DNA of 64,000 bases from contig CM097887.1 in assembly GCA_044892525.1 (NCBI GenBank), positions 50,592,001 to 50,656,000 of the forward strand, read 5' to 3'. Origin of the DNA: Schmidtea polychroa. Lineage: Eukaryota. Each line of letters opens with the position of its first letter. Within the stretch, counting starts at the first letter, position 1. The position numbers and the translations under genes were made by a program. Below the pieces are notes generated by a model, which worked only from the letters and a program-made list of their open reading frames with translations, searched no databases and was not told the origin of the DNA. Of this stretch, positions 15,229-54,182 are shown piece by piece.

Positions 15229-15273
<45 letters not shown>

Positions 15274-17623: not shown

Positions 17624-17640
17624 TACAATTCTAAACTAAA

Positions 17641-19609: not shown

Positions 19610-19738
19610 CAATTTCAGGAGGAATAGCCGGATATCTGTCGTAAGGTAGCGGTATAGTAGCATAGAACCGAGTAGCCAGAGTGAATAATTTTGTATATAA
19701 TAAATCTGTAAATATCGGTGTATATACACAATAATATT

Positions 19739-19876
19739 AAACAGTTAAAAAATAAAACAAATAATTGAAAAGTGAAAAGTCCCAAGAAGCTGCAGATATA
19801 TATATATATATATATATATCTGCAGCTTCTTGGGACTTTTCACTTTTCAATTATTTGTTTTATTTTTTAACTGTTT
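19739..19876. repeat. Perfect 138-bp palindrome: right TIR + (AT)12 + left TIR (junction 1/2)
   Basis: 57 + 24 + 57 nt, fully self-complementary. Confidence 0.97.
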
Positions 19877-21268: not shown

Positions 21269-22171
21269 TTAGGAACATGCAGATTCGAGGACGAATCTAA
21301 AGAAAAGGGGAGATATGTTGAAGTTCAACAGGAGAGGTACAGAAATGAGGTGAAAAATGAATAAAAACACCGAGTGAAGGTTTTATCCATCCACAAAGTT
21401 TTAAGCTCTTGCTCCAGGCTTTTATATTTTCCAACAGAAACATTGAATTTGAAGGAGTTAAAAATTCTCGCCCGCTCAGGACCATGATTTTCAGTTTCTG
21501 CATTGAGTGCCAATCGAACAGAAGATCTGTCAGGAGATACACTATTGTGCTCAGATACATCACGTCCCCGTTTCTTGTGTTTACGGTGAACGTGCTTAAT
21601 AGATCGCTGCTTTGAAGATACACGATCAATCTTGTCAGGAGTTCGCACAGTGGGCACAGGTGAGCGAGACAGTACGGGAGATAAACTGTTTGAATCGCTG
21701 TGGTCGCTACGAGATATTTTAGGCATACTGGGAGATCGTCCCTCAGGAGTGTTATTATGTCGTCTAGAAGATCTCGCCACTCGGTGCCTTTAAGTAGATC
21801 ATACATCATCGGTGATATCGGAATATCTTCCATTTTCGTTGTTTTCGACACATTGACTTCCTGCCATAGATAATCGCAATTGTTTTGAAATTGTATATTT
21901 AAAAATGAATTACATATTACTTATTACCTCCAAATGCTTCAAGAACCAATCCTAATCGAGAAGCGTGAGTTCCAATCAATAATGGATGACGTGTGTTATA
22001 GAATCGTTTATAACACTTAAACACGTCACTATCGATTTTAATATAAGCAGTATTCACTCCTTCTTTATTGCAAAAATAACTTGGCAATTGATAGGTTGGA
22101 AATCTTGTATTTGGATTTATAAAGTAATTATTAATATCAATTAAAAATTTTTTTATAACTTCTTCAGACAT
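21269..22171 (-). pseudogene. Predicted spliced basic S/R-rich gene, copy 2
   Basis: Matches copy 1 at +4548. Confidence 0.6.
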
Positions 22172-22188
22172 TACAATTCTAAACTAAA

Positions 22189-24157
22189 ATGGCTCGTATT
22201 TATAAGGGTGAGTATCACATGCCTGGTTACAATTTTTTGTGGCCCAGGCACAAATACTGACATATGATTGGATAAAACACAAGAAAAAAATCCTGTGCCT
22301 GGCTGCGAACCAGTTGATGAAATTGATTTACTGTGCCTACAACATGACAAAGACTACAAGAGCAAGTCCACACGTGTGCGGCATGAATCAGATAAAAGAT
22401 TAGTTGCTGACTTGCAGTTAATCACAGATGATTCACTATGAACTAGACAGGTCTTTGCCAAACACGTAATTTTATTTACATTTCATTTGAAAATTTTTAT
22501 AGAAAAATTAATGTTAACCAAAAATATGATGGATGAATTTATTAAAGAAAATCGTCCTGAAAAAACTACATTAGACGTTATGAAAAGATTTGCAAAAAAT
22601 TTACAAACAACAGAAGCTATTAATGATTTAGTTAAATATAACTTTCGTATGCAGCATAACACTGATATTTTAAAAAATAGTTTAAAAGGCAGAACAAAGC
22701 TTTATGTTAATGCAGGTGAAAGAATATTTGCATTGTACAGTGAACATATACATCCACGAGTTATGTCATATTTGAGTAAATTAAAAGGTGATTTAGCAGT
22801 ACCCGATGGCTTTAGGGCTTTATATCATTCCAATTCAATTAAATCTTTAACGAGCGATTTATTTCACCCTTTAAATCTAGGTCAAAAGTTCAAAAATACT
22901 ACAGGTAATTATATTAACAGATCTGTCATTACTCCTCAGGTCACAAAGATTTTAACCATGTTTAGACAAAGATCTTTTTATAAAGGTATTGTTTTCAGAT
23001 ATGGTGGAACAGCATCAGATTTAATTGCTCAGGCTGGTATAACGGGGAGTCATTTAGCAGCAGAGCATGTATGGGAAACTTTCGACCCACATAGTATAAA
23101 TCCCGATCCCCGAGAACATATTTATGAAAGATATTCTGAAGAAGAAATGAATAATTTAAAACCTTTAAGTGAACATGAAGGGTATTTTGACTATAGTGAA
23201 TATTTATATCCAGATAGAGATTTTTTTTATAGTTTTCATAGAGATTATGACTATGTTAATCCATTAGAAAACACTGTTCCAAATTATTTCGGCAAACAAT
23301 ATCAATATTTTTTAACAAAAGCTCAACATTTTGTTAAAGAATTAAGAAAAGAAAATTATAGTGTTAATTATCCCTGGAAGATACAAGATATAAAAGACTT
23401 AATGAGTGGTAATTATGTATTAAATAAATTATTTACAGATAATCCTGGTATGTTAGAACAGTTTCATATTACTTCTAAAGGTAATATAACAAAGTTTTTA
23501 ACATCGGCTATGTTTCAAGCACATAAAACAATGGAATTACCAGATTACGACTCTAAAGACCCTCAGAAAGAACTATATGAATATGTACGTTTGAGATCTG
23601 TAGAAGAACAATGAAAAATTAATCCTTATGACACATATAATCCTGGTGAACCTAATTCGTGGTATGCATGGGCATCTGATGGTAAACAATATAAATGGAC
23701 TGTCACTTCTTTTAGACATTATTGGAACCCCAGTACCAGACGTTTTCCTAGGAAATTACCCATTTCAGCGCTTTCAAAACAACAAGTCAATGATAAATTT
23801 ACACAGTACCTTCATAGTTTTAATAATAATAAATTAAAATATAATTGGTTACATGGTCGTGGCGAAGGCAAGAATAAAGATATTCGCCTCCTCAACCGGG
23901 GAGAGTTAGAGATATTAAGATATCATTATCAATTAAACCATCATCAATCGATTGAACACACTAACTGGAAGGAAGCAACAAAAGAACAACTAACGCAATA
24001 CATACGCAAAATGCCTAGAAACATACCTGTTAAGATAATAAATGAAATACATCATAAAGATTTAACCAATCATATATTAAATAGTCACAAAGAACATGTC
24101 GAGAGCACTAGGGGTTCTGTATATACTGAACAAGCTATAAAATCATTAGGGCACTAG
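22189..24157 (+). pseudogene. Disrupted PLA2-led ~655-aa ORF, copy 2
   Basis: Same frameshift and three TGA codons as copy 1. Confidence 0.85.
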
Positions 24158-24286
24158 CAATTTCAGGAGGAATAGCCGGATATCTGTCGTAAGGTAGCGG
24201 TATAGTAGCATAGAACCGAGTAGCCAGAGTGAATAATTTTGTATATAATAAATCTGTAAATATCGGTGTATATACACAATAATATT

Positions 24287-24424
24287 AAACAGTTAAAAAA
24301 TAAAACAAATAATTGAAAAGTGAAAAGTCCCAAGAAGCTGCAGATATATATATATATATATATATATCTGCAGCTTCTTGGGACTTTTCACTTTTCAATT
24401 ATTTGTTTTATTTTTTAACTGTTT
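24287..24424. repeat. Perfect 138-bp palindrome (junction 2/3)
   Basis: Same structure as 19739-19876. Confidence 0.97.
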
Positions 24425-25816
24425 TGAATTTAATTATTTGTATATTTGGTGTATTTTTTATGATTTTTGCATTTTATATTTTCTGTTGCTGACTTGACAG
24501 GTAAAAATACAAATATTTTTTTTTATTTACTAAATTTATTAATTATCGACCTTCTGGCACTACACGAGATTACAAACTCAAAATATTGTCATTTTTTAAT
24601 AATAATCCAATGTTTTTCTACTTTATTAAAAGATTTGTAATTGTTTATCTATGTTCCAGTTCGGCGTGGTAAAAATCTGACAGCGTCAGCCACCGGCTAC
24701 CATTTTCCACCCAGAAAAATATTGATTTTTACATTTTTCGAATTTTAATTAATTTTAACAATTTGTAATTTTCTATTTTAGAAATGTTTGTATAACCCCA
24801 ATTGTGTGCAGCTAATTCATATGTATTTTCCACCCTTTCGTGATTTGCAGTGCAAGAAAGATGGTTGCATGCTGACTCGAGTTTTGTTTATTAACAAACT
24901 CAGAAACCAAAATATATCTTGAGTAAAAATATTGTGTTGGGCAGCCAATAGCAAGCCGACATTTCCACGCTTGCTTCGTGTTCGTGTGGCAGGGAGAAAG
25001 AGATTTAGAGTCCCTTTTTAAATTGATTTATCTCGACTGAAAGGGGAATTAAATTAGAAATGAAAAAAAAATAAATTAAATTACTTGTAAGTCTCTCTGA
25101 GACATCAGCAAATAATAACAAAAGAAATTTGAGATAGTCGAAAAAAAAAATTAATTAAATTACGTGCAAGTCAGACATCGTCAGATAATTTTGAAAATGA
25201 GATTTTGAAATATTTGGGGGAAAATTCTTTTAAAATAAAATGAATAAATAAACATCATTTTGTTATTGGGATTATTATTATTATTAAGATTAATATTATT
25301 ATTATTTCATATATTTATATCAGTAATGCCTTCGTATTTGTATCAGTCAAATAAAAATATTTTGTAAGTAGTTTATTTAGTATGTTGACGATAAATTTTG
25401 TTAGTTGTCAATTAAATCGACTTATTTCTATATATCCTTGGAATTAGGAGATATTACTGGAACTAATTTAGAATAATGAATCAATTGTGCCTGTTCAGAA
25501 TAAAAGTTGTGTACAATCGAATAAAAAAATTCTATCATCATATTAAAGCTTAGCTTTAGTTCATCACTCTATTGATTGCTTGGACTGTAAAATCGTCTGA
25601 AATTAATGTTATCAGTCTATTAATCGTTTAATGTAACAAAATTCCTTTAGTTATTTCAATTCTTGGTTTTGGGTATTGCATCTATATAAAAGAAAAAAAG
25701 AAAATTTTTTAAATTCCTGAGTTTCAAAATGTTTCCCTTGTTTTGACTAAAATGGCAACTCTTTAAACATAATTCAAACTTAATAATTATTATTATCGTA
25801 TGATAAATTGGAATTA

Positions 25817-26719
25817 TTAGGAACATGCAGATTCGAGGACGAATCTAAAGAAAAGGGGAGATATGTTGAAGTTCAACAGGAGAGGTACAGAAATGAGGTG
25901 AAAAATGAATAAAAACACCGAGTGAAGGTTTTATCCATCCACAAAGTTTTAAGCTCTTGCTCCAGGCTTTTATATTTTCCAACAGAAACATTGAATTTGA
26001 AGGAGTTAAAAATTCTCGCCCGCTCAGGACCATGATTTTCAGTTTCTGCATTGAGTGCCAATCGAACAGAAGATCTGTCAGGAGATACACTATTGTGCTC
26101 AGATACATCACGTCCCCGTTTCTTGTGTTTACGGTGAACGTGCTTAATAGATCGCTGCTTTGAAGATACACGATCAATCTTGTCAGGAGTTCGCACAGTG
26201 GGCACAGGTGAGCGAGACAGTACGGGAGATAAACTGTTTGAATCGCTGTGGTCGCTACGAGATATTTTAGGCATACTGGGAGATCGTCCCTCAGGAGTGT
26301 TATTATGTCGTCTAGAAGATCTCGCCACTCGGTGCCTTTAAGTAGATCATACATCATCGGTGATATCGGAATATCTTCCATTTTCGTTGTTTTCGACACA
26401 TTGACTTCCTGCCATAGATAATCGCAATTGTTTTGAAATTGTATATTTAAAAATGAATTACATATTACTTATTACCTCCAAATGCTTCAAGAACCAATCC
26501 TAATCGAGAAGCGTGAGTTCCAATCAATAATGGATGACGTGTGTTATAGAATCGTTTATAACACTTAAACACGTCACTATCGATTTTAATATAAGCAGTA
26601 TTCACTCCTTCTTTATTGCAAAAATAACTTGGCAATTGATAGGTTGGAAATCTTGTATTTGGATTTATAAAGTAATTATTAATATCAATTAAAAATTTTT
26701 TTATAACTTCTTCAGACAT
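25817..26719 (-). pseudogene. Predicted spliced basic S/R-rich gene, copy 3
   Basis: Matches copy 1 at +9096. Confidence 0.6.
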
Positions 26720-26736
26720 TACAATTCTAAACTAAA

Positions 26737-28705
26737 ATGGCTCGTATTTATAAGGGTGAGTATCACATGCCTGGTTACAATTTTTTGTGGCCCAGGCACA
26801 AATACTGACATATGATTGGATAAAACACAAGAAAAAAATCCTGTGCCTGGCTGCGAACCAGTTGATGAAATTGATTTACTGTGCCTACAACATGACAAAG
26901 ACTACAAGAGCAAGTCCACACGTGTGCGGCATGAATCAGATAAAAGATTAGTTGCTGACTTGCAGTTAATCACAGATGATTCACTATGAACTAGACAGGT
27001 CTTTGCCAAACACGTAATTTTATTTACATTTCATTTGAAAATTTTTATAGAAAAATTAATGTTAACCAAAAATATGATGGATGAATTTATTAAAGAAAAT
27101 CGTCCTGAAAAAACTACATTAGACGTTATGAAAAGATTTGCAAAAAATTTACAAACAACAGAAGCTATTAATGATTTAGTTAAATATAACTTTCGTATGC
27201 AGCATAACACTGATATTTTAAAAAATAGTTTAAAAGGCAGAACAAAGCTTTATGTTAATGCAGGTGAAAGAATATTTGCATTGTACAGTGAACATATACA
27301 TCCACGAGTTATGTCATATTTGAGTAAATTAAAAGGTGATTTAGCAGTACCCGATGGCTTTAGGGCTTTATATCATTCCAATTCAATTAAATCTTTAACG
27401 AGCGATTTATTTCACCCTTTAAATCTAGGTCAAAAGTTCAAAAATACTACAGGTAATTATATTAACAGATCTGTCATTACTCCTCAGGTCACAAAGATTT
27501 TAACCATGTTTAGACAAAGATCTTTTTATAAAGGTATTGTTTTCAGATATGGTGGAACAGCATCAGATTTAATTGCTCAGGCTGGTATAACGGGGGGTCA
27601 TTTAGCAGCAGAGCATGTATGGGAAACTTTCGACCCACATAGTATAAATCCCGATCCCCGAGAACATATTTATGAAAGATATTCTGAAGAAGAAATGAAT
27701 AATTTAAAACCTTTAAGTGAACATGAAGGGTATTTTGACTATAGTGAATATTTATATCCAGATAGAGATTTTTTTTATAGTTTTCATAGAGATTATGACT
27801 ATGTTAATCCATTAGAAAACACTGTTCCAAATTATTTCGGCAAACAATATCAATATTTTTTAACAAAAGCTCAACATTTTGTTAAAGAATTAAGAAAAGA
27901 AAATTATAGTGTTAATTATCCCTGGAAGATACAAGATATAAAAGACTTAATGAGTGGTAATTATGTATTAAATAAATTATTTACAGATAATCCTGGTATG
28001 TTAGAACAGTTTCATATTACTTCTAAAGGTAATATAACAAAGTTTTTAACATCGGCTATGTTTCAAGCACATAAAACAATGGAATTACCAGATTACGACT
28101 CTAAAGACCCTCAGAAAGAACTATATGAATATGTACGTTTGAGATCTGTAGAAGAACAATGAAAAATTAATCCTTATGACACATATAATCCTGGTGAACC
28201 TAATTCGTGGTATGCATGGGCATCTGATGGTAAACAATATAAATGGACTGTCACTTCTTTTAGACATTATTGGAACCCCAGTACCAGACGTTTTCCTAGG
28301 AAATTACCCATTTCAGCGCTTTCAAAACAACAAGTCAATGATAAATTTACACAGTACCTTCATAGTTTTAATAATAATAAATTAAAATATAATTGGTTAC
28401 ATGGTCGTGGCGAAGGCAAGAATAAAGATATTCGCCTCCTCAACCGGGGAGAGTTAGAGATATTAAGATATCATTATCAATTAAACCATCATCAATCGAT
28501 TGAACACACTAGCTGGAAGGAAGCAACAAAAGAACAACTAACGCAATACATACGCAAAATGCCTAGAAACATACCTGTTAAGATAATAAATGAAATACAT
28601 CATAAAGATTTAACCAATCATATATTAAATAGTCACAAAGAACATGTCGAGAGCACTAGGGGTTCTGTATATACTGAACAAGCTATAAAATCATTAGGGC
28701 ACTAG
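26737..28705 (+). pseudogene. Disrupted PLA2-led ~655-aa ORF, copy 3
   Basis: Same lesions, plus two A>G changes (27596 S>G, 28512 N>S). Confidence 0.85.
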
Positions 28706-28981
28706 CAATTTCAGGAGGAATAGCCGGATATCTGTCGTAAGGTAGCGGTATAGTAGCATAGAACCGAGTAGCCAGAGTGAATAATTTTGTATATAATAAA
28801 TCTGTAAATATCGGTGTATATACACAATAATATTACATATAATACCCGTATGGAAACCATAAATGTCATAACAATAAAATTAAGCGAAAAATGAAAAATA
28901 ATAACTAAATAACGAACGAACGTAGAATATAAACACCAACTTGATAATATTATTATTTAGAAAAAGACACAAGAAAGAACA

Positions 28982-29281
28982 GTGACCCCAAACAATACAC
29001 CAACAGTACGAGTCGACAAAGGTTGTAAAGAAATATGGAGTAAAGTAATGTGCCAATTAGCAAATCGAACGAGAAATTACATAGAAGAGGCGAGGGAATG
29101 GGAATTCCATCAATCCCAGTGGTTAATTCAAAAATTGAGGGCAGAGTCGGAAGCCTGCAAAAGAGCCGCAAAATGGTCGGCATTAGAGAATACCCGGCAA
29201 GAAGCACACTGCCACTATTTAAAGCAGTTGGTAAGATATTTTATGGAGAACTCTTTAATATTAACTTACTTGATAGTTTAA
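28982..29281 (+). CDS. Hypothetical small helical protein of unknown family
   Basis: GC-richer 99-codon ORF with protein-like composition; non-ATG start in the ORF track; no motif recognised. Confidence 0.3.
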   Translation: MTPNNTPTVRVDKGCKEIWSKVMCQLANRTRNYIEEAREWEFHQSQWLIQKLRAESEACKRAAKWSALENTRQEAHCHYLKQLVRYFMENSLILTYLIV

Positions 29282-30425
29282 AGTAAATTTAATATAATTG
29301 TTCTTGTGTGAGATTTAGTTTTCGTATTTGACGATTAATTAAATTGAAAGTCAGAGAACGATATTCCTTATTTTGTTACAGTTCGTTTGTTTACTATTAT
29401 ATAATAAATTTAAACAAACATTTTAGTGATTTTAAAATTTACTTGCTTGATAAAAAATGAATAAATAATATTCTAATAAATTTCAGTGAAATTTAAAAAG
29501 GCAGCAACATAGAAATTTCACACCCTCAAAACTTGTAGCGCTAGCCCTGGTAATAGGTACATTAGTCGAAAGATCTGCAAATCTTGCGCATATCACCGCT
29601 CAATTTGACTTGCCGTCCATCGTTCTTCTCCGATGTTCTAAGAGAATGGCAATATCAAAACAGACATTCTTTCAAAAAGAAGAAATAAATAGTGAAACGG
29701 AGTTTCAAACAGCAATGAAAAAAATGGTAAATCAGCAGTGGTTTTTGATGAGTGATGATTAAAATTAGTCTTGTGAAATCATAATAAGCTCTCTATTGGA
29801 TCCATTTTGAATTTCTTAGTGTTGAATTTGTTAGTTGTTTTTAATTAAAATTTGAAATTAACTTGGTTTTCATTTATATATCCACGTGTAACGGAATTTT
29901 TTTATATAAAACTTTGAATGTACATATTAACTTGTGTTGGGCTAAACTTCGAGAGTGTCGAAAATCGGGCTAAGAACGAATAAATAGGATAAAACAAATT
30001 TTCAATAAAATCACGAGAAATATAAGAATAACTAAAGCAGATAACAATAAAAGAAATAAGAATATAAAAGAAATAAAAATAACTAATAAAACAATAGAAT
30101 GCATAAGGCGAAATAAGGTGAAATTACCCAACACACATGGTAGGAAAAGGAAAAAACATAAAATAACAAAAAACGTAAGAAATAAACGAGAAATTTAAGA
30201 AAATAAAATAGAAATCCTCAAATAAATGTATAGGCGAATTAAAACAAAAATTGTATTACGATAAAATGACAATAAACGCGCAGGAAAAACGGGAGGAAAA
30301 TAATAAAAAAATACTAAAATAAATAAAATATTAATACAAATAGGAAAAAGTTATTAAAACCCAACACATTTCAATAAAAACACCTAAATAATAATAAATA
30401 AAAAATATCACAAACAAGGCGCGTC

Positions 30426-30451
30426 CTGATTGGACGAAGAATAGTATATAA
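30426..30451 (+). promoter_or_regulatory. Inverted CCAAT (CTGATTGG) + TATA element
   Basis: CTGATTGG 30426-30433 and TATATAA 30445-30451. The same arrangement occurs at 11992-12022, both after long A-rich tracts. Confidence 0.55.
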
Positions 30452-30519
30452 CGGAAGGGAAAAATCTGTAGAGTACCACTTTTAATCGCTACTCTACAGG
30501 TAAAAATTTTTGTTTTATT

Positions 30520-30753
30520 ATGACCACCACTTTTAATCGCTACTCTACAGCAATCTTGAACACCATTTTCGACTACGATTCAACGAAAAATACAATCGAC
30601 TACCAGTACCTAGCGGAACCAAAAGAAAACGATTTATTGAACATTTACCAATTTTTGACTCTCGAGGGATATTATTTAGTAAGTATGGTGATTGATTTAA
30701 ATGCCTTTTATGATGATGATATTAAATATTTCTATGAATTCGATATTGAATAA
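30520..30753 (+). CDS. Small acidic hypothetical protein inside the LTR-like unit
   Basis: ATG-initiated 77-aa ORF about 70 nt downstream of the TATA element; D/E/Y-rich. Confidence 0.45.
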   Translation: MTTTFNRYSTAILNTIFDYDSTKNTIDYQYLAEPKENDLLNIYQFLTLEGYYLVSMVIDLNAFYDDDIKYFYEFDIE

Positions 30754-30759
30754 ATTCTT

Positions 30760-30981
30760 TTAGTATAATAAATGTTTTAATTTTCGAAAGATGTTCCTCT
30801 CTCTCTCTATGGTGCTGACGACGATGTCGTCTGGGACTCCAATATGATGCGGGAAATCAAATAAATCCGTGGAAGAAGCCACGAGGATGGCGGCTAGAAA
30901 TGACATTAAAAATCGGGACGAAGTTAGATTTATAGCAATAGAGATAATTGAACGATCGTGATGATTGTGGGGCGGCATCAT
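30760..30981 (-). CDS. Small hypothetical protein, convergent with the 30520 ORF
   Basis: ATG-initiated 73-aa GC-richer ORF with a hydrophobic stretch. Confidence 0.3.
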   Translation of the reverse strand: MMPPHNHHDRSIISIAINLTSSRFLMSFLAAILVASSTDLFDFPHHIGVPDDIVVSTIERERNIFRKLKHLLY

Positions 30982-32048
30982 ATTCGAGACTCAGACGGCG
31001 TGGTCGCCAGACAAGTGAATTTTATTATAACGATTTATTTTATAACACCATACCATGTATTTAATCATATTTATTACAAAAGCCTTTTTGTTCTTTTTAA
31101 TTGACGAAGTGAGGAGATCGAATCGTCCTTCCTGGCGGTCTAGGGATGGTGGCAGCGATGATTGCCGTCCTTAGGTGGGTCAGGAGGGGTGAGGACATCC
31201 GGCGGACGATATTACTACTGCACGGGAAATTCTGTCACTGAGTGATGTCTGCGTCCGAATCAGGCACCCACGTACGTAAGGCATGTACTCATGAAAACTC
31301 TAATGGAACTTCCCATCGGTAACGTCACAGGAACATATGCACGCACACCCGGTAGCAAAATTCGTTCCAGCAAAGATGACATCAAATCCAATCGGGAGAG
31401 TTCTATATGACGTCATAGTTACATAATGAAATAGGCCTTACCTGAGATAGTAGAGTGTGTGTAGAAACCAATGAGCAGGCCGAATTTTCATATAGTGATA
31501 TAACATCTTCACACGGCAGTCGTGATGTAAGCAGATAAACATATTATGGTACACACATTCACTAGTCTACGTCGTCATGACAACCATTATCGCAGTGATT
31601 TAAAAACAAACACTCGAAAATAATAATGGGTGAAATCAGTAATTACGAATTAAATGTTTAATCGATTGATTTTATATACGGTCAGGAACCTAAATCGGAT
31701 TTTCTTGTTCTATTAATTCAATAATGCCTAATTCTTGATAACGAGAGAGACATAATACAGAGAAAGATAATTAGGTAGTTTAATAAACCAGATTAATACT
31801 ATTAAAATAACAATCGCGAGACGGCAATAATATATTTAACCAAAACCGACAAGATTGACATAGACGAGTAAATTTAAGGTGACTATTCTCATTTTCTTTC
31901 AAATAAGTTAGAGAGATTTGTGCGAATTATCATGAATGATCTGTGGCATGCATGAGTTTATGGACGAATGTTGAACGTATGTGTGAGATAATTTTTTTTA
32001 AGTTCGTTTTATGAGGGAGGTGGGTGATTGAACCCGCGCTGCACAAAT

Positions 32049-32864
32049 ATGATCGTCGATCAACTAAATGCGAAAAACAAATTTGATATCTTTGATCTTC
32101 AGATGACTACCCCAATCAATACCGAGAAAATTCTTCGTCCTTGTTTTTCCTGCGCGGACAAAAATGCTGACATCGCGCAGCTTCACCTCTACATCGGGGC
32201 TCTCAAGAAAAGAATCGACCTTTACGAAGGCACGTGGTTCTCCCCGCCACAAATGAAGGAGGAGAGAAGTAAAGTATTGCGGCTAGAACATTGTAGAGAT
32301 AGCTTGCTGGAGGAAAGCCGATGTCAACGGCTTACAATCAAAGCCCAATCAGAAGCCCTCCACAAGGTATACACGGAGGCAGAGCTAGCCAAGCGGGTAC
32401 GGGAATTTCCCGTCATAGAAAAAATGAACGTTTTTCCTCTCCATCACCAAGTATCCAAACCAACTACTACGAGCTGCCAAGGGCATGGACCGTGCCTACC
32501 GCCCATCCCAGCTCCAATTTTATCGGGTTCTCAACCTGTGGTAGGTGGACCTACCGACCCCATCTTGGATCCAATTCTGGTGGCACCCGTCGTCACCCCG
32601 CACACTGAAAACCACCCGTCGTCCCGCAAACGGAAACGGCCGACCCGAGCCGAGAAAAATCAGAAACGCCGAGACGCGATGGCTGCTCTCGAGGCGTCCC
32701 TATCGGTGGCTCAATCTACCATAAAAGAAATATCCTCCAGCCATTCCATTCCAACTAAGGAAATCTTTCGCAGAATTCCAGCAGAAGGTATTAAGTATAT
32801 GTCCGACCACCGATTGCCCGTCGACATCGACGAGATGATCGCGGAAGGCGAGGGGTTTCCGTAA
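32049..32864 (+). CDS. Hypothetical coiled-coil/Pro-rich protein with NLS-like RKRKRP, inside the LTR-like unit
   Basis: Long intact ORF (first ATG 32049) in an AT-rich genome. A diverged homologue at 13560-14072 conserves amino acids, indicating real coding history. Confidence 0.75.
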   Translation: MIVDQLNAKNKFDIFDLQMTTPINTEKILRPCFSCADKNADIAQLHLYIGALKKRIDLYEGTWFSPPQMKEERSKVLRLEHCRDSLLEESRCQRLTIKAQSEALHKVYTEAELAKRVREFPVIEKMNVFPLHHQVSKPTTTSCQGHGPCLPPIPAPILSGSQPVVGGPTDPILDPILVAPVVTPHTENHPSSRKRKRPTRAEKNQKRRDAMAALEASLSVAQSTIKEISSSHSIPTKEIFRRIPAEGIKYMSDHRLPVDIDEMIAEGEGFP

Positions 32865-34392
32865 TGACCCCTTCCATTGGCCAAATATTTTCGTGCAGCA
32901 TAAAGAAACTCGAAGAAGTGACGTTATCCTATATATGCCCGTTGATGTTTTGTGCTTATTTATTTAATGATAAATGTATTTCTTTGTGGTTTTGTTGTTC
33001 AATATAACTGTTCACATCCTTTGATTTTGTCCCTAGTATGCATGGATTGCTGTGATTGATTTAAGTGAAAGGTACTTCTGAAGATATGATACGAACTTAA
33101 ATGTCGACCCTTCGGACCAGGGTCAGACTGGATTTCGTGTGAAGCAATGGGTAAGACCTTCTAAGGCACCGTAGAACCCGTACCGAGAAAGGGTTAGGAG
33201 TAGTCTTAAGGCAGAGGCTCACCTGCTAACCTTTTCCAACCCGTGTGGGCAGCACCAACGTGGAACATAACCACGGGCTCATGCGTGGGAATATGTACAT
33301 GATCATTTGGTGTATGTATGGGGAGTATCTGAGCGGAGTAATGATGCAGGGTGTGTGAGACGATAGTGCGTGCAATAATTTCCTTTTCCCCCACATATGC
33401 CAACACTTGATTTATAATACTTCAAAGTTTCGTAGATCAGTTTCGATATAACACAGTAAGAATGACACCTACAGTTAGAATTATTATATATAACAAGTTC
33501 TCATTGAAAATATTCCGTGATAAACAAAATTTATATATTCATCAAATAGCAAATAAAATTACACGTTTAAAAGTGAAAAATCCAAATATGATACAAAACA
33601 AAAAATTATCGATGAAAATAATGACAGGTTCATAAAACATTAAATGATGAATAATTATTTATAAATTGCAAAAATTTTAAAATTAATTATCAATCAAAAA
33701 TTACATATACGCCTACGTGAAATCTGAGTCTTGGAAATAATTAATTTTTTCACTTTCGTGTTTAACCAATATTATAACCGTAAATTATAATCCCATCAAA
33801 TTTTGAACTCAGCCGAGATATAAAACTTAAATATTCTGATTTTCATTAACTTTTTGAACTAAAACCAATTTTCCATCAATTGATTTTATTAGAAATGAAC
33901 TATTACCTCATTGATAAATAGTGAATAAAGCATTAATACTTTTTCTAAAAGCTTAAAACTATTTCTGTTGCTGGGATTTGAAGTAATTTAAAAAACCGAA
34001 AATATAGAGAAAAAACAATTCTGTTTTATTAAATACACAAAGAACAAAATTAAACCAGTGAATATTTAAACAAACGTCGAAATAATTAAAAATCCACTTT
34101 TACTTATAAATTTTAAAAATAAATTAATGAAATTTTTATAAATATTTATTTATTAATAATATTTAAATTAAATTATTCAATATTTAATTTTTAGGAAAAA
34201 ATGTTTCTTAAACAAAGATGAATTAATTCGAAAATGGTGCAACCAATAGAAATTAAGGAAACTGGTGAGTAAAAGAGATTTCAATAATTGTGACAAATTA
34301 TAAACAAAGTTATTGATTAAAGTTTTGTTTATGTCTGAAGTAAGTTTGATAAAGCACAATTATGAAGACTTATTGATGATTAAATACTCTAG

Positions 34393-37300
34393 ACCCAGAA
34401 AAAGCTTCTGATCAAATGTGGAACTGTAATAAATCACGATTGTACATATGATGCTGATGTATTAATTGAAAATGGCAAAATTGTGAATATTGCAAATAAT
34501 CTTGAAGATCCATCAGCTGAGTGCATAGATGCTACTGGTTGTTTTGTGATTCCAGGTAACTTAATAATAAAGTTATTGATTTGATTCTGTTACGTAATCT
34601 TAATTACAATTTATATATAAAAAATATTTTAATTTGAACCCATAGAAAATTTTTTTATTTTAATAGATTGCACATATCTGAGTTGATATAATGAAATCGT
34701 GCAGGGATAGTTAATTTGACCTATGTTGATTTAATGTATTTATTTATGTATACATTTAGAAAATATTCAAATTAAATTACACGGCTGATAGACTTTTGAT
34801 AGTGAAAATAGTTGCAGGAATTGTAACTCTTAGTGTGATTCACAAGCAGCACTAATGGCATTTATTGAAAATCAGTAGTCACATAAATTTTATGTGTAGA
34901 GAAATTTTTAAAGTAACCGTTTCTATTTTAAGATCATTAAAAATTTTGCGATTTGTTTAATTTATATTATTGACAGTCTATGGCTTACACTTTCCATAAT
35001 ATCTAAGTGAATATGTTTGATTTCTGTTAAGATGCTGAAGTAAAACATTTCTATAGATAGTGATATTAAATTTATTTCTTCAAGGGAAATGTTGATAATT
35101 TTATTTTTTCCCGTGAGCCATGCTTTTATTCTGCCAATCAGAAGCCACAATGCTAGATGGCTCACTTCTTCCCATTGTGGCTTCAAAACATTTATTTAGT
35201 TATTTGTATATTGTAAAATAATGCATTTCATTTTAAAATTAGGAGGAGTAGACGCAGAAACATATTTCGCCGCCAAAAGAGGTGGTATTGTAAGTCCAGA
35301 AAATTATTTCTCCGGTACAAAGGCTGCGATATATGGTGGAACTACCACTGTCGGTAATTATTTATCTCAATACTAATATTTATTTTTAATATAATGTAAT
35401 TATTTAGTTAACTGTCTTGAAATAATCAAGGATGAATCTTTGAAAGAGAAATATGAAATTGAGAAGGAAATAATTTCTAAGGAAATTGTGTGCAATCTGG
35501 CTGTACAGCTCTGTTTGCCGGAAGTTAATGATACTATTAAATCACAATTTTATGAATTACTGCAATCTAAATCCGTTGTCCCGTTGGTCAGATTATCAAC
35601 TGTGGATAAAGGTTGTCATTGTGTGAGAATCGATGATCAAGAACTGTATGATGCATTGTGCTGGTGTAGAGATAATTCTGTGCTACCAACCGTGCATGCT
35701 GAAAATGATAAGATGGTTGCAATTCTTGAGAAAGAATTACTAGCTATTGGGATAACTGGTCCTGAAGGTCATTATTTATCTAGACCCGAAAAGGTAAGTT
35801 GCTTTAATATGAGCTTTGATTTTATGTAGCTCTTTTTTTATTTTTTTAAATACACTTTGAAAAGGCATTGCCGAAAATTTGTGAATATCAAAAACATCGA
35901 TATATTTACTGGTTCATAGTCAAGCTTTTTAATAAATACAATATTTATGATGCCGATAATAAGGTCATTAATAATAATTTATTATGATAATAATTAATAA
36001 TGATAATGTTAATGAAAAAATTAAGTGATAATTTAAGTCTTTTGATGTGAATAATGTATATAATGAAAACATTTTCAACTATAAGATAGTCCTTGTCAAT
36101 CTCCTGGAATCTAGTATTCCTCTTCCCAAAAATACATCTCGATTTTTCTTTTTTGTCATTTTTCCTACTTTTCATTGGTTAAAAATATAATATAATGATA
36201 TACTTTCTTTTTCTGAAGAATCTTTAAAAATTTTATTTAAAATTAAAATCAAATATCCTCTAAAATTCAAAATGAAACACCAACCAAAATTTTTAAAGCT
36301 TCTATAATTCGGCCATAGAAGCATATTTTAGTGAAAAAATATTTATAAAATAAAGCTTACAATAACTATTTCTATACGCGATTTAAATATTTTAATATAT
36401 GTCAATTTTGATCTTTATTCCTATCTTTTAAAAGCATATTTCCTAAAATTTTTATATTATTTTAATTATTGTTTTATAATTTTTTTTAATATCAGTTATT
36501 TTCAAGGTCAATGACAACAGATCAAATTGATGATTTCTTTAGTATTGATTGTTGGCCGTCTATGTCTAATGAGAATTGCTTCTTTGAATCTGACCTTTTT
36601 TTGGATGTTTCCATTGGCTACGATTTCGATTGAAATATTTTTTCGTTCCTTCCTTGGTTGACATTGTTGGAGATGTCTGTATAACGACAATTTCCACCAA
36701 GATATAGATGTTCTTTAACTATTTGGTACAAGGTCCTGAGTGTACTTCCAATGTATATTTCCTTGCATACACTGCACGTGATGCAGAAGACAATGTTTTT
36801 TCTAAAGCACATATCTTTCGGTCTCTGTCAATTTTCCATTATGCAATTATTTTCTTTATTTGTGTTGTTGGCCAGGGCTTTTCTCAATATCCAAGATTTA
36901 TGTGCTATCGGAATTGGAAGACCGGTGCGTTTAAGTTCTTTCAGGATCTTGGAGTCAAGTATGTTGATGAATGGAACATTCAGATAGAAATATTTCTTTT
37001 TTGTGTAATCTCCCTAGATCTTTTTGGTTTTGGATTCATTTTTTCACTGTCCTTACTATGATATCCGTTTCTGTGTAGGATTTTATTAAAATTTGATTGC
37101 TGTTTAAAGTTCTCGTTTTCTTCAGTGCATCGATTGGCTATCCTTTGTTTCTCGTTTTTTATGACATGTACTTTCTGTAAATATGGAAGCGCTGATCTTT
37201 CGTGCATAAATATTTATTTGTGAGCTGCTTTTCTGTAGAACCCGTATGTTGGAGTATTTGTTTCTATTTTAATTCTTTAATCCAATAAATTGAGGGATCC

Positions 37301-39927
37301 ATTTTCTTTTGGACATTCGATTTCAAACTTAATATCTCAGTGAGCTGCATTGAATGTATGAAATATATTTTAACAAATTTAATTAGAAGTATGTATGGAG
37401 AAACTCATCGGGAACAAAATAATCAAGAAAAAATTTTGAAAGCGTATTTGAATAACCACCCAAAAGAACTAATCTACGAAGTACAAAGACATGTTTTCAT
37501 GACAGCAGGAGCACACTATTCTCTATGATTTTTTCATTAAATACATTCGCAGCAAAAGGCTTAAATTATCACTTAATTTTTTTAAATAATAAATGCTGCT
37601 ACCAAGAAATCATCACTTAATAATTATAATAATAATAATTAGATTAATAACAATAAGTTTTCTATTGATTAACATCCTTCGCAATGATGATTACAGTAAT
37701 GAGATCAAGCATGCAAATGACATGATAAGGGACCAGGATAGTGATTATTCTCGCTGTGATAATACTATTAATGATATTAGCAAAATAATAATAATAATAA
37801 AAATCGCCATTCGTACATCTTTTTCACTATATATTTCGATGACATCACTATCATCATCAGGTTACCTACAATCACGACGGATGAATAACTATTCTATATT
37901 GATAATATATAAACAAATAAATTTTTAAATTATAAATAACAATTTTAAACAATTATTTTTAAAAATAATTTCCAACACTTAATTATTTTAAACTTTTAAA
38001 ATTATTTAAAAATATTAATTTAATTATTTTTTATATATTTAACATAACTATTATTAATATACATCAACATACAAAAACTTAATTAAAAACATTCAATACA
38101 TACGTATTCACTGTATTCTGCACATTGATTTTAGGATTAAAATTTCTTTCTAATAATGCTTCACATATCACACGCTCTAAACAATTATCAAAATTTTTTG
38201 ATAAGATTTTAAAATCCGACATTCCTAATTCTCTCATACTGACTTTATTATGATCCTTAATATTGGACACTCCCTTCGGTCGACAGTGTTTTTGAACTCG
38301 AGTACAGAGATAACGGGAAGTCTCTCCAAAGTCTCCATTATGTGAATTGATAAACGAGATCCGAACACAAACCAGTTTTTAATTTAATTAATTAATTTTT
38401 TGTTATCAAAAAAAATGATTATATGATAAAAGTAGGTCCTTGTCGAAATGTTCTATCTAATTTTACTTCAACCTTTGAAAGAAATGACAATATTATCTCA
38501 TATTCCACGAAGCTTCAATAATCATTACATCAATTTGATGAATTAGTTTTGCAACCTGTGAGATGTTAAATATTTGTATATTCTAATTTTAATTTATTCA
38601 TTTTTTAAGCATGAATGTAAAATCAGTTCACACTTCAATAAAATTACAGTGATCTTCTTTTACCATAGCACTCAAATGGAAATTATTCGAAGATTAAAAA
38701 AATTAGTGAAATGTTATTTCTTTTATGTTTCTTCGCTAGTTGTCTTTTACATATTATTACAATTTTCTTAGTTCATTTTTGATATATGTCACAGAATTAA
38801 TTTAATTCAGGTTGAGGACGAAGCAGTTTTTCGTGTTTTGACTATAGCGGAAATGGTGAAATGCCCAATACATTTTGGTAAAGTCTATGCAAAATCGTCT
38901 CTTAATAAAATAATGGACTGGCAGAGGAAGAGTTCAAATACAATTGTTTGTGGAACAAGTCTTGTGGCTGTCGTTCACAACGCCGAGAAATATCGAGATC
39001 CAAATTGGAAGGTAGCAGCATCATTCGTCACCATGCCAGCATTAAAAATGAATAAAACTACTGAATCTCAATGTACAGAATTACTTGAAGCAGTTGCGAG
39101 TAAAAAAATAAATCATGTTGCTTCCTCGCATTTAGTTTTTGATATGAAGCATAAAGCTAGTGGCAGAAATGATTTCCGCTGCATAATTCCTGGTACTAAT
39201 GGAGTTCAATATCGAATGAAAATTCTATGGGACAAAGCTGTGGTACTTTTCATTTTTACATTTTTCTAATAATTTTAATGTGACTAAGAAATCTGGTAGA
39301 ATGGAACCGACATCATTCGTCAATTGTGTAAGCACAACACCAGCAAAATTGGCGAATATTTATCCTCAAAAGGGCACGGTATCTATTGGATCTGATGCTG
39401 ATATAATTGTTTGGAGGGGTGATGGTATGTCAAATAACCATTTTGAGGCCGGCGATATCAACGTATTCGAAGACATGATTTGCCATAGTGGTCCCAAATA
39501 TGTAATTGTTAATGGAATAGTCGTTCTAAATCATGAAGGGAATTTCACTGCCTCTAAAGGCTCTGGTCAAATTGTTTCACCTTCGTCTGAAACAATGAAT
39601 TCTTATTTCCAGAAACAACTTATAAATTACAAACTGTCACATGAAATCGAAAAGAAAATTGCACGGGAACCCTATGACGGTCCTGTCATAGATCCTAACA
39701 GCGATAACAAAGAAGAAAAGCATGTTCTCTATTCTCACATGGTCAATAATGATGTTTATAAACGAGGTGGACCGGCAGAAGATAAAAAAGGTTGTTTAAA
39801 ATTATTTTCATTTTTTATTATAGTAACCATTCTAGAAGCATTACCTCCTGGTCAAAGAGTAATTAGAACTTCAGTGAAAACGGCTCAGCCTCCAGGTGGT
39901 TCAGCGCAAGCAAGTTGGTGGGGATAA
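34393..39927 (+). CDS. unc-33: CRMP/UNC-33-like (dihydropyrimidinase family, non-catalytic); exons 34393-34555, 35243-35353, 35408-35793, 38811-39242, 39289-39790, 39836-39927; start exon not resolved
   Basis: LLIKCGTVINHD..IDATGCFVIPGGVD, GTKAAIYGGTTTV, VHAEN, HYLSRPE, TTPAKLANIYPQKGTVSIGSDADIIVW and C-terminal QPPGG; GT-AG introns in phase. Confidence 0.9.
36150..37330 (-). mobile_element. Penelope-like element fragment (RT C-terminus + GIY-YIG endonuclease), decayed, in CRMP intron
   Basis: CITCSVCKEIYIGSTLRTLYQIVKEHL; inverted copy of 52720-54010. Confidence 0.85.
37820..37870 (-). ncRNA. Candidate Penelope-type minimal hammerhead ribozyme
   Basis: Minus strand reads CCTGATGA-TGATAGTGATGTCATC-GAAA-TATATA-G: CUGAUGA and GAAA core, short stem II and palindromic stem III. 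It lies downstream of a GIY-YIG C-terminal fragment. Stem I is imperfect. Confidence 0.5.
38060..38330 (-). mobile_element. Penelope-like GIY-YIG C-terminal fragment (second family)
   Basis: DFKILSKNFDNCLERVICEALL..FNPKINVQ; inverted homologue at 57690-57870. Confidence 0.7.
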
Positions 39928-40937: not shown

Positions 40938-42010
40938 TGGTTGCGACATCTCATTAACTTTGTGACAAAACTTTACTAATATAATACATAGATAATTAAT
41001 ATTTAGAATGCATTCCACAATTTTTTAATAATGCCATTTAGTCTATTTGGAATTGATCTGTATAGATCAAATATCATTTGATCCAGTATTATGTTCCATT
41101 CTGTTAAAATAATGCCCCATAATTCGATAGATGTTTTTTGAGTTCTTTTATACACTTTGTCCTTCAAGATCGACCATAAATTTTCTATTATGTCTATGTC
41201 AGGTGATTTTGGGGGCCAATCGCTTGTGACGCAAATACCTTTCCTAACCAGAAATTCTGTAGTAGACTTCGAATGATAGCATGAAGCACCTTCTTGCATA
41301 AAAATAATTTCCGGAGAATAAAGGTCTTGAAGGCCTATTTCAAAAACAGTTTCATAAGCAGTAGAATCTAATCTTCTTGGACATTTTATCAACATTCGTT
41401 TTCCATTCCCTAAAATAGCTCCTCACACTAATACTGAAATACATCCTTGTCGCACTGTTTTACACGTATATTTGTTCTTAAAACGACTATTTATAGGTCT
41501 TCGAACATAACGACGCCGAGTGGTATATAAGTCAAACCGTACCTCATCAGTAAACATTACATTATTCCAAAATTCTTGAATTTATGATTTATAGGATTTG
41601 CGCCAAGCTATTTGTTTTCGAATTTGAACCTTATTTAAAAGCGGTTTTAGCTCCTAATCTTCCCTATAAGCCACTTTTTCTTAAAATTCTTCGAACTGTC
41701 CAAATTGACAGTTTCTCGTTCGTTTTTATCCCTCGAGATATTTCTCTAGCAATATCAAAGGGATTTATTTTTGAATGAATTAAAATTGAACTTCTCTCTC
41801 GTTCCGTAGATTTCAATGGGCGTCCACTCTGCTGTTGATTTTTAACTGATCCACAGCGTAAATACTTTCGCCGTATGTAGCTCATAGTTGCTTGCTTTAC
41901 ATAAAGCATTTTAGACACCTCCATTTGTGTTTTGCCTTTCAATAACTTGTCTATTATTAATTCCTTAATTTCTTCAGAAATCTTTGGCATTTCTAAAAGA
42001 TATATTAAAG
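40938..42010 (-). mobile_element. Tc1-type (DD34E-like) transposon, decayed
   Basis: HTH ORF 41664-41990 (SGRPLKST), FWNNVMFTDE, VLV*G, FMQEGASCYH, WPPKSPDIDIIENLW. Confidence 0.9.
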
Positions 42011-44559
42011 GGTTATAAAATAAATATAAAAAGTTAATGTGTATAGAGAAGCTCGGGCGGGCTATTAACTATTAATATTGTTTGAACTATTTTGGGTGAT
42101 ATCCGAGGCAGAGATGTGGAGCTGAATGTCAGGAGAGAGATTGACTCGGCAATAACTGTTTGTCATCCAGCTTTGAAAGAGTTTAGAAGGAATGGGAAAA
42201 TCAGAACAAACCGGCATTAGCCCCAGATAGGGATGTTAAGAAGAAATTTGAGAAAAGGCAAAAGGAAACTTATTGGGAGGATTAAGGATAATGACTAGGT
42301 GAATATTAATAAAGATTTTGACAAAGCATCTACATCGATGGGAGGATCGGTCAAATTCATAAAACCTTGGTCATTGATGATTTTGTGTTGAAAAAGATAT
42401 TTTGTGATTAAATATACATTTGGTAGTTTGTTATTTCGTTATTTTCAATTAAAGGGAATTATGATTCTTGAATTGAATAAAAATAAACAAAATATATTTC
42501 AAACTATTTTAACTTAATTGACACGTTATCAAACTACAATGAAAATTGAAATTGGAAATAAGAAATTTCAGTCAAAAATTTCGCCTACTATTTTTAATGA
42601 ATAGTATACATTAAAAATTAGAAGCTTTTATGCTCTAATTAACCACTTGAGTGCTGGTCGTTTTTTCTAAATATTATTTAAATTTGTTTAATAAAAATCG
42701 GTAAAAAGACGTGGTTTTTTAAATATTTAATATCTTTCATAATTTTTAACATATTTTAATAAAATTTTCACAAATAAATACAATTTTAATGTAGTAGTTA
42801 AAATGTAGTAGTTAATATTAGGATTCTCATCCGTTAGAACATTAATATCTGTTTTCAAATCACTAAATAATTCCATAAATTTTATTTAATAAATTATACA
42901 CTCAAAAACTTATCTCTTCTTATTTTTTGTTATTTAAATAAATTTCAGTTTTCTTTTTAAAATATTTTTCAATAAAAATATTTTTTAAATTTAACAAAAT
43001 TTCTAATTAATCTTTAAGAATCTTTCAACTTCCTCATAATAAAAATTTATAAGATATTTTTGCAAATAAATAAAAAAATTTATGTGTCAAAGTTTGCCCG
43101 ATCACATATGAGATGGCATGGGGCTCGGAGTGCCTTTGGCTCAAACAATAAGTAGCGCCATCAAATCAGACAATTTCCAATAACAATTTATTATTTGCTC
43201 GCACTAAGATAAGTCTCTCGAAGGAAGATCTCTCATTCTGTTACACTAGGAATATAATATTATAATTTCGCAATAAAGTTTCTTTTTCTATGTCAAATCT
43301 TCGAGAATTCTGCTTTCCTTAGACTAACTGGCAAAACGCCTATCTTGTAATTGAATTTTTTTTCTCTTTCGGACTTAATTTACTGATAGGAGTCCTTTTG
43401 AATTTATTTTAGTAATTATCAATTTGGGAGCTTAGGAATTTTCGCACTACCTATGACACAACAAAAATAATGACCTCCGACTTACACCTCGCACAAAAAA
43501 TACAACCAGATAAAACATTCATCCACTCTAGTTTAATATTCCCCTTTAGAAACTGCACAATTCATCACATGATTCTTGACAGCAATAGGAACAAAGTCGT
43601 ACAAAACAGACCCAAACAATTAGGATATGACCAGAAAATCAAAAAAATATTAAAAGATACACCAAAACATCAACAACAATTATATATATGCTCACTTCAA
43701 ATTAGTAGGTTTAGGAATAGGACCGAGCATTGACGAATACATGATACACGGCATCACACACCTCATTAAGAAAAAAAAACCCTCACGAGACATATGAATG
43801 AAGGAATTTGTAGTTAAACAAATGACAGCAGTATCTAATATAAGGTTCAAACACACAACAATAGATATAGACCACACACTTCGATGGCTAAATGCAGACA
43901 TCAAAGATGAATCGGGTCCATCAACAATATTCGGCAAATTCAGATCAGCAATTAAAAGGATAAACAAAACGTTTGGCATCAAAATCACACTTGCATAGAA
44001 AACAATAAGTTCATCTTACACATTAAAACAAAAAGTTTAATGAAACATTAATGAAACAAGATGTCAATTAATTCCAAATATTTATCGAGTATGTGAAAAT
44101 CCAGGATCAATTAATGCACCGATCCGTCGAATTACGCGGTACCGATTTTATGCGGTCATTAAAATAATATTTTTTTAATGAAATCAAAAATTTTTAGTGG
44201 CAAGTGTCACTAAAATAAATTTACGTGTAAAGACATTTCTGAAATTTTACAATTGGCCAGTAACTTAGAAAATAAGGTTTTGGTCACTGATCCTGATATT
44301 GACGGTGCTGTTAAATTTCAGTGAGACAATAAAGGCATTTGCGCACAATACAGTGAAATTTAAAAAGATATAACAAAACTCATTGCTCAGGGAAAATATT
44401 AAGCTAAAATTTATTTTTAACTTTTATTATTATGTACGTCACCATGGCAACCGACAAAATGGTTACAAAATTTTATATCTACTGAACATATCAAATCCAA
44501 ATGAAGTCTGAATCAAGGTTTTATTGACATCAACAATCATTTGCTTGACTCCAAGTGTA

Positions 44560-45834: not shown

Positions 45835-46411
45835 GGGTCTACGACAAAAGGCCGACAGAGACAAAAGACCGACGAGGACAAATAGCTTACAGGCTTAAAA
45901 GTCGACAGAGATAAAAGCCGACTAAGTAATTTTATAATTTTATAGGATAAATAAACAATTAAAATAACATCATTTATTTAAAGAAAAAGATGCAGAAAAA
46001 TATTTCTACAATAAAAATCTTAAAACTTAAATTATACGATATTCCCCGTAAAAAAATTATGTAGAATATTTCAGGATGATTTTTTCCAACCAATATTTGC
46101 CATATTTTGTGCGAATTCTCTACTTTGTTTTGAGTTCTTAGTATGGCGTTTATTTCGTTGTCATATACAGACTAAATTTATAATAATAAATAAGTATTAT
46201 TGAAACAATTTAAAATTATGTTTATTGTTTAGAATAAAATCTTTTAAATTATAATTTATGAATTAAATTATCTTTTTGTTTGCTTTTGTTCATGTCGGCT
46301 TTTTGTCCACGTCGGTCTTTTGTCTGTCGACTTTTTGTCCATGTCGGCCTTTTGTCTGTCGGCCTTTTGTCTGTCGGCCTTTTGTCTATGTCGGCCTTTT
46401 GTCCGGATTCC
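45835..46411. mobile_element. MULE-type MITE, 577 bp, with tandem subterminal repeats and 9-bp TSD
   Basis: Inverted arrays of GACAAAAGGCCGAC at both ends; AATATTTAA on both flanks (45826-45834, 46412-46420). Confidence 0.85.

Positions 46412-54151: not shown

Positions 54152-54182
<31 letters not shown>

Follow-up and report, generated by a model that had tools for sequence, protein, structure and literature searches.

A long-terminal-repeat-like unit of Schmidtea polychroa enclosing a conserved coiled-coil gene

A 64,000-nt stretch of the Schmidtea polychroa genome (assembly GCA_044892525.1, contig CM097887.1, positions 50,592,001 to 50,656,000 of the forward strand; hereafter the window, to which all coordinates refer) contains a 3471-bp element, unit A, which has the ends of a long terminal repeat (LTR) and encloses an intact open reading frame (ORF) of 271 aa belonging to a conserved protein family. 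By somewhat better than an even chance, we read unit A as the solo LTR of a Gypsy-like element, in which the LTR carries one spliced accessory gene, probably for an RNA-binding regulator. Recombination between LTRs is usually taken to strip a retrotransposon of its coding capacity. If our reading is true, a gene inside the LTR would survive this process, and the resulting solo LTRs would amount to a family of expressed genes scattered through the genome and targeted by PIWI.

Termini and architecture of unit A

The borders of unit A are exact, with CTTG/TGTTGG at 29931-29940 and CCAACA/CTTG at 33400-33409. The features within and around it are as follows.

29935-33405, plus strand: unit A, LTR-like element TGTTGG...CCAACA of 3471 bp, with a 6-bp terminal inverted repeat only
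29931-29934, unstranded: left copy of the target-site duplication CTTG, directly outside the 5' end
33406-33409, unstranded: right copy of the target-site duplication CTTG, directly outside the 3' end
29975-30420, plus strand: A-rich tract of the left arm, also present in the related units B and C, with many AATAAA on the plus strand and T-rich on the minus strand
30425-30451, plus strand: reverse CCAAT (ATTGG; CCTGATTGG) and TATATAA at 30445, a putative promoter
30475-30550, plus strand: 25-bp direct repeat (copies 30475-30499 and 30526-30550) with TTGTTTTATTAT, common with unit B, between the copies
31388-31472, unstranded: second promoter-like cluster of putative function, comprising motifs that we take to be two CCAAT boxes, TGACGTCA at 31408-31415 and a minus-strand donor at 31442
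32049-32864, plus strand: intact 271-aa ORF with a coiled-coil core (residues 32-135), a Pro-rich linker and an Arg/Lys-rich helix (residues 193-208)
33001-33278, plus strand: right-arm block conserved with 12733-13014 of unit B, by alignment

The A fraction is 0.46-0.60 per 100 nt across the first 500 nt. The first copy of the 25-bp repeat ends at a candidate splice donor (CAG/GTAAAA, 30499) about 50 nt past the TATA motif, and TTGTTTTATTAT reads as AATAAA on the minus strand. An original prediction made from these letters had described the termini with a perfect CTTG duplication, the A-rich 5' tract, CCAAT and TATA promoter motifs, an intact coiled-coil and basic ORF of about 270 aa and the lack of gag and pol. 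Each of these was recovered here, the CCAAT motif in reverse orientation.

We evaluated how much weight the termini can bear. Among 52 TGTTGG/CCAACA pairs lying 0.2-10 kb apart in the window, one is flanked by a 4-bp duplication, with 0.12 expected per simulated window, and 11.5% of 200 simulated windows contained at least one such pair. With relaxed ends, 3 of 246 pairs carry a 4-bp duplication, against 1.9 expected. Taken alone, the termini and duplication of unit A are thus weak evidence. The ends are instead fixed by the related unit B, because it shares landmarks with unit A at matching offsets. The short inverted ends, the varied 4-bp duplications of A and B, the internal promoter and the lack of terminal direct repeats and of a primer-binding site (PBS) together fit a solo LTR.

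No direct repeat was found between the two ends of unit A, and the end scan detected neither a PBS-like TGG adjoining the ends, nor a polypurine tract (PPT), nor a long terminal inverted repeat. Unit A lacks gag and pol; a six-frame motif scan of the window revealed no reverse transcriptase (RT) and no zinc-knuckle motif, and its single protease motif, at 14739, lies outside unit A. Rfam yielded no match inside the unit. Two-LTR non-autonomous elements of the TRIM/LARD type have direct repeats at both ends together with a PBS and a PPT. This type was rejected for unit A, whose terminal direct repeats are absent (end-to-end scores of 15.5-29, within the shuffle range).

A conserved ORF family

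The 271-aa ORF is a conserved gene, as judged from protein comparisons. None of 500 local shuffles of its region gave a 250-aa ORF (maximum 184). A search of 1.84 billion representatives returned 12 matches at E ≤ 0.001, 11 of which were kept; homolog P0011, having no tblastn match to the window, was dropped as a repeat artefact. Profile searches, each scoring about 8000 candidates, contributed five further homologs, bringing the total to 16 (the nine for which a source is shown share a single source label and have one member each). The family core spans approximately residues 57-135, and the homologs are 29-40% identical to the unit A protein in the helical core. The core is usually followed by a Pro-rich linker and then a basic motif: at least nine Arg or Lys in 17 residues were counted by script in A and in 9 of the 16 homologs, several of the others being truncated. 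Met19 (32103) stands directly after a candidate acceptor (...TTCAG) and matches the register of the apparent natural starts of the homologs, and it is the probable true start of the ORF.

Fourteen of the 16 homologs are fused to unrelated domains, each different (SNF, subtilase, CRAL-TRIO, ABC, GDC-P, actin, L21, PTP, hAT, sybindin, LSM14, MCM, peptidase M1 and ankyrin); of the other two, one is a fragment and one carries an N-terminus without annotation. We infer that the fused homologs arose when gene models took in a mobile ORF situated within or next to many genes, since 14 different, unrelated fusions fit a dispersed mobile ORF sitting at many loci. The family, which is without a Pfam model and matches no distinctive fold, thereby already contaminates annotations.

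The window holds one further copy of the ORF:

13662-14072, plus strand: decayed homolog of the 271-aa ORF with one in-frame stop (13713-13715), outside unit B and without recognisable enclosing arms

The decayed copy aligns with the unit A ORF in tblastx at 25% identity over 104 aa (E 1e-11). A profile built without window sequences finds only two copies in the window, the ORF of A (E 7e-28) and the decayed one (E 3e-19). At the DNA level, the resemblance of the two does not exceed chance (41 of 300 shuffles as good). The match of the protein profile between sequences that are not alike as DNA suggests that conservation acts on the protein. Both lie on long branches of the protein tree, in which 1 of 13 inner branches is well supported, and no order of events is claimed from it.

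Pfam contains no family for the 271-aa ORF, and a word search with this ORF alone passed 0 of 564 candidates. PHROGs gave one match of unknown function at E 0.021. The best match among PDB sequences has E 0.19, and the basic stretch weakly matches viral coat proteins (E about 3). No match was obtained in phage tblastn, and in the ESM Atlas the best value for A was 0.85, with no usable match for homolog P0003.

Structure models of the ORF product

The AlphaFold model of the product comprises helices at residues 35-60, 66-107 and 200-231 joined by a disordered linker (mean pLDDT 66, pTM 0.31). Foldseek searches with this model gave no match at E ≤ 0.001 in the viral or PDB libraries. The best VIA hit (Z 5.5) reflects generic long helices and does not show fold novelty. 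Modelled as two copies, residues 30-140 form a parallel coiled coil in register, with a score of 0.62, against 0.06 for the best of three controls; the runs agree in 100% of contacts, with pLDDT of at least 81. Calibrated on microbial proteins, the dimer score attained its mark for 21 of 30 solved pairs and for 0 of 23 single chains; for eukaryotes, the counts were 17 of 29 and 0 of 30, respectively. Among pairs without an older solved relative, just one of seven attained it. The model supports dimerisation of the ORF product through a parallel coiled coil, and a larger oligomer is possible.

Related units in the window

Two further LTR-like units and a protease ORF bear on the interpretation of unit A.

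11506-13127, plus strand: unit B, 1622-bp relative, TGTTTGG...CCCAACA with CTAA/CTAA flanks, the same arms and no ORF homolog
8692-11083, minus strand: unit C, more distant LTR-like unit, TGTTGGGC...CCCAACA, with an A-rich arm, a TATA offset of 507 and no ORF homolog
14667-15068, plus strand: retropepsin ORF of 133 aa with a DSG motif, ending right after the protease domain

Units A and B share landmarks measured from both ends. The offsets from the 5' end in A and B, respectively, are 491 and 486 for CCTGATTGG, 511 and 511 for TATA, and 576 and 574 for TTGTTTTATTAT; the distances from the 3' end are 253 and 242 for AAGACCTTCT, 186 and 172 for CACCTGCT, and 157 and 142 for GCAGCACCAAC. The TATA offset is thus conserved across all three units (511, 511 and 507). 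The right arms of A and B align with a score of 70 (maximum 42 in 300 shuffles); alignments of the A and B middles, of the A and C right arms and of the 5' ends were not significant. Both A and B are flanked by perfect 4-bp duplications (CTTG and CTAA, respectively), in line with the earlier proposal of an LTR-like unit with integrase-type ends; none was found for unit C. In unit C, the start motif TGTTGGGCTGAAAA occurs twice, at 11083 and 11158 (75 bp apart), and the TATA offset favours 11083. The middle between the arms measures 0.65 kb in B and 2.5 kb in A, which is about 1.85 kb longer. These units therefore describe a lineage with fixed arms and a variable middle.

The original prediction further held that every solo LTR of the family leaves intact genes behind. 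This generalisation finds no support in the window, where only unit A among the three LTR-like units holds the ORF and the profile finds two copies in all. The right-arm block was also scanned for RNA structure: no conserved fold was found, and a ribozyme or conserved structure there was rejected (z from -1.4 to +2.9).

Proposed mechanism

In the reading that we favour, a two-LTR Gypsy-like retrotransposon would have been inserted by a retroviral-type integrase, and LTR-LTR recombination would have reduced the insertion to the single LTR now seen as unit A. Transcription from the TATA promoter at 30445, followed by splicing from 30499 to 32103, would yield a 253-aa protein. This protein would dimerise by its long parallel coiled coil, present two Arg-rich helices and bind nucleic acid. 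Expression from a solo copy would remain possible, since the LTR contains both the promoter and the ORF.

The sense strand of the LTR can be assigned in two ways, the TATA offset being conserved and the poly(A) signals fitting either strand. On the plus strand, the ORF may lie in a long R/U5, which leaves 13 AATAAA in U3. On the minus strand, the ORF may run antisense within U3 from a promoter located in U5; this option uses the AATAAA common to A and B at an offset of about 580, followed by the T-rich tract.

Given this model, we consider it plausible, short of an even chance, that the accessory protein binds the RNA of its own element and acts as Rev or Rem do in the export or packaging of unspliced RNA. 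Binding to DNA as a transactivator or anti-silencing factor is nearly as probable, RNA binding being slightly ahead. If the product does bind element RNA, it would offer a testable answer to how unspliced RNA is exported or packaged in an invertebrate LTR retrotransposon. A more far-reaching scenario, which we regard as unlikely, is that an LTR-retrotransposon lineage moved a Rev-like accessory gene into its LTR, so that solo LTRs serve as dispersed genes supplying the factor in trans, or that an arm-cargo-arm unit spreads without a two-LTR parent.

Several observations weigh against a solo LTR with its own RNA-binding regulator. No two-LTR parent, RT or integrase was found within the 64-kb window, and gag, protease, RT and integrase domains are fused to 0 of the 16 homologs. 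The ORF is present in one of three LTR-like units, being absent from B and C, and only one of its two window copies lies within arms; no right-arm block follows the decayed copy (224 of 300 shuffles as good). The 13 AATAAA in the first 460 nt are awkward for a plus-sense U3, and no canonical AATAAA follows the 271-aa ORF on the plus strand. As for the product, long helices pair easily in models, and its domain order differs from that of Rev. A structured RNA target is poorly indicated: z < -2.5 was reached in 1 of 45 windows of A and 1 of 20 of B, and the B window failed refolding with 200 shuffles. A class-1a export-signal pattern occurs in 2 of the 16 homologs and a weaker one in A, counts made without a shuffle control. 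The order of unit B, the decayed ORF and the protease could moreover be read as 5' LTR, extra ORF and gag-pro, and the CTAA match of B would arise by coincidence in about 0.8% of pairs. The solo-LTR reading gains from the retropepsin ORF, which follows the decayed homolog on its strand at a distance of approximately 600 bp and is the sole link of the family to retro-enzymes.

Competing explanations

The strongest competitor, which we nevertheless consider improbable, takes unit A as a complete non-autonomous unit, either a single-copy integrase substrate that is moved in trans or the product of an internal deletion that joined a 5' LTR start, internal sequence and a 3' LTR end. It accommodates the fixed arms with a variable middle, the presence of three such units without any RT or integrase in 64 kb, the 0 of 16 homologs joined to gag or pol, and the position of the decayed ORF outside arms and beside a protease. 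Its difficulty lies in replication: inverted repeats of at most 6 bp and the lack of terminal direct repeats, PBS and PPT leave independent replication unsupported. Moreover, solo LTRs commonly outnumber full-length copies, for example in rotifers (excerpts of PMC5408684).

Alternatively, unit A would be an ordinary solo LTR of the B type into which a separate ORF cassette was inserted or recombined once, the ORF family deriving from another mobile element or from an internal region, as an Ogre-like extra ORF before gag. The ORF-less units B and C, the second ORF copy outside arms in the order B, ORF, protease, and the dissimilar DNA upstream of the two ORF copies (74 of 300 shuffles as good) all agree with a cassette. 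However, no pair of internal repeats flanks the ORF segment, and unit A keeps an intact ORF with a matching donor and acceptor. A weak similarity links the middle of A with the sequence left of B (9 of 300 shuffles, in one test among several). In addition, the perfect 4-bp duplication of B reads as an insertion of B into an ORF-bearing relative, rather than as the 5' LTR of an element containing the decayed ORF. On this balance, we judge the cassette rather unlikely.

The non-autonomous Ginger-type DNA transposon offered as an alternative by the original prediction shares TGT ends and a 4-bp duplication with unit A, yet Ginger1 and Ginger2 have inverted repeats of 40-270 bp and 50-180 bp, against 6 bp in A, and target CCGG/CCGT or RTATAY, against CTTG in A and CTAA in B (excerpts of PMC2836005); such an origin is very improbable. 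Least probable of all is a host gene surrounded by TG...CA and CTTG matches that arose by chance. The frequency of duplication-flanked pairs in simulated windows leaves some room for it, but units A and B agree in six landmarks at corresponding offsets from either end, and the homologs are fused to 14 unrelated genes.

Comparison with known systems

The published systems below are described from excerpts of the papers cited. Flatworm Saci2-like elements have TGT...ACA LTR ends and 4-bp target-site duplications without a consensus (PMC12471100). Unit A resembles Ty3/Gypsy solo LTRs, including the Saci2-like ones, in these ends, in the duplication and in lacking gag and pol; it differs in size, the Saci2-like solo LTRs measuring about 0.45 kb against 3.5 kb for unit A with its intact conserved ORF (PMC12471100). 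The planarian giant Gypsy elements Burro/GYPSM1 have an internal region of up to 25 kb, a total length of over 30 kb and a giant gag-env-pol polyprotein with BIR, BCL2, MATH and ankyrin domains (PMC6431247). They share with unit A an AT-rich invertebrate setting, long LTRs and accessory coding capacity. In contrast, their extra domains belong either to the internal polyprotein or to an upstream ORF, and an LTR-borne ORF is not described in the excerpts of PMC6431247, a comparison with unit A made by description only.

A relative may already be catalogued, as suggested by sequence features of the transposon GLT2 of Schmidtea mediterranea. Part of the GLT2 probe encodes a coiled coil in which T-W-x-x-P-E...L...I..L lies in ungapped register with the family motif, and an acceptor-like site precedes this motif (PMC8532177; by eye, from hand translation). 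The second half of the family core is unmatched in this comparison, which was made by eye without an E-value. GLT2, which PIWI silences in planarians, is de-repressed upon loss of SMEDWI-2, and Repbase consensus sequences served for annotation (PMC8532177); it is also treated in PMC10954484. In the literature examined, no description of GLT2 structure was found, nor any account of the ORF family or of an invertebrate Gypsy element with an ORF inside its LTR; such an account may exist in Repbase Reports, bioRxiv supplements or the planarian genome paper of 2018.

Neither accessory ORFs nor genes carried by an LTR are without precedent. The sag gene in U3 of mouse mammary tumour virus is an LTR-encoded gene. 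PMC2811009 is silent on sag. The additional ORFs of the plant Gypsy elements Grande, RIRE2 and Retand, like the extra ORFs of Ogre, lie in the internal region (PMC7264820, PMC6431247), so that solo LTRs lose them. Similar to the unit A ORF, the plant ORFs are conserved and of unknown function, encode nuclear proteins, have their own or antisense promoters and have been proposed to play a role like that of retroviral accessory genes; no sequence relationship to the unit A ORF is shown in these excerpts (PMC7264820, PMC6431247). If the product of the unit A ORF does bind element RNA, it would provide a parallel to these plant ORFs. The ORF3s of rotifer elements are products of spliced RNA and are likewise encoded in the internal region (PMC5408684), and PMC11410931 provides general background.

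Rev, Rex, Rem and Rej are small accessory proteins translated from spliced RNA, with an arginine-rich motif and multimerisation (PMC3856414), properties of which splicing and multimerisation are predicted in unit A. There are also differences: sequence similarity is confined to a basic-motif match short of the threshold, the unit A ORF has a long N-terminal coiled coil, and its carrier is an invertebrate retrotransposon rather than a retrovirus (PMC3856414). Homolog P0002 matches Pfam REV at E 0.0013, short of the cut-off, and A has no REV match; a counterpart of the Rev response element was not found in the folds of A or B. Membership of the Rev family is not claimed for the ORF product, which would be Rev-like in action only.

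Small ORFs of unit A

Two further ORFs lie in the left half of unit A.

30520-30753, plus strand: small ORF of 77 aa, acidic and aromatic, without a homolog; candidate gene only
30981-30760, minus strand: small convergent ORF of 73 aa without a homolog, overlapping a 36-bp imperfect inverted repeat (30815-30850 / 30975-31010)

Both were described originally and are indeed present and convergent. Their inclusion in a multi-gene cargo did not hold up: comparisons with units B, C and the flanks revealed no counterpart (1 of 35 with z > 3, unconvincing), and Pfam gave no match above the cut-off. A Flp_N match of the 77-aa ORF was rejected as chance (E 0.0014, short of the cut-off, over the duplicated 25-bp repeat). 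At least two ORFs of at least 70 aa occur in 48% of element-wide shuffles and in 0.3% for a 640-bp window chosen post hoc. On these sequence grounds, the small ORFs are candidates only.

Surroundings of unit A

The window has about 30% GC and is dense in transposon remnants, comprising hAT, Tc1-type DDE and helix-turn-helix pieces and the retropepsin. A proteasome subunit encoded in it is the animal alpha-6 type (E 2e-35, against 3e-24 for the next group). Unit A lies approximately 1 kb upstream of an early coding exon (34393-34557) of a dihydropyrimidinase/CRMP-like host gene, which extends over several exons at 34393-39927 on the same, plus strand; read-through from the unit A promoter into this gene is possible. 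Between unit A and the tandem array upstream, a 106-aa open frame within A-rich sequence (28961-29281, plus strand) shows no credible Pfam match and no similarity to the right arm of A.

The tandem array at 15248-28835 consists of three head-to-tail copies of a 4548-bp unit with ORFs on both strands and 2-4 differences between copies, the junctions being formed by a perfect 138-nt palindrome with (AT)n at its centre. A long plus-strand frame in the array is broken by stops, and no helicase was found among its scanned ORFs. A 57-aa stretch (17720-17890) resembles the phospholipase A2-like domain PF08398 at E 0.0035, short of the cut-off; this domain is linked to parvovirus capsids. The array is possibly an endogenous densovirus-like concatemer with hairpin ends, and the copy number of the unit may be an assembly artefact. 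A CCCAACA motif (15227-15233) abuts the (AT)n start of the array, and three 17-bp repeats with CCAAT-like cores (14314-14364) precede the retropepsin ORF.

Elsewhere, remnants of hAT, Tc1/mariner-type and FLYWCH/MULE-like transposases occur at 4217-5560, 41003-42068, 55182-56207 and 62118-63995, and a run of 208 N at about 6620-6827 marks an assembly gap. Long dispersed inverted similarities between 36098-38229 and 53024-57960 (77% over 835 bp and 90% over 276 bp) probably represent two decayed copies of repeats. Short-period tandem repeats with units of 15-17 bp are present in inverted arrangement at 45843-46404.

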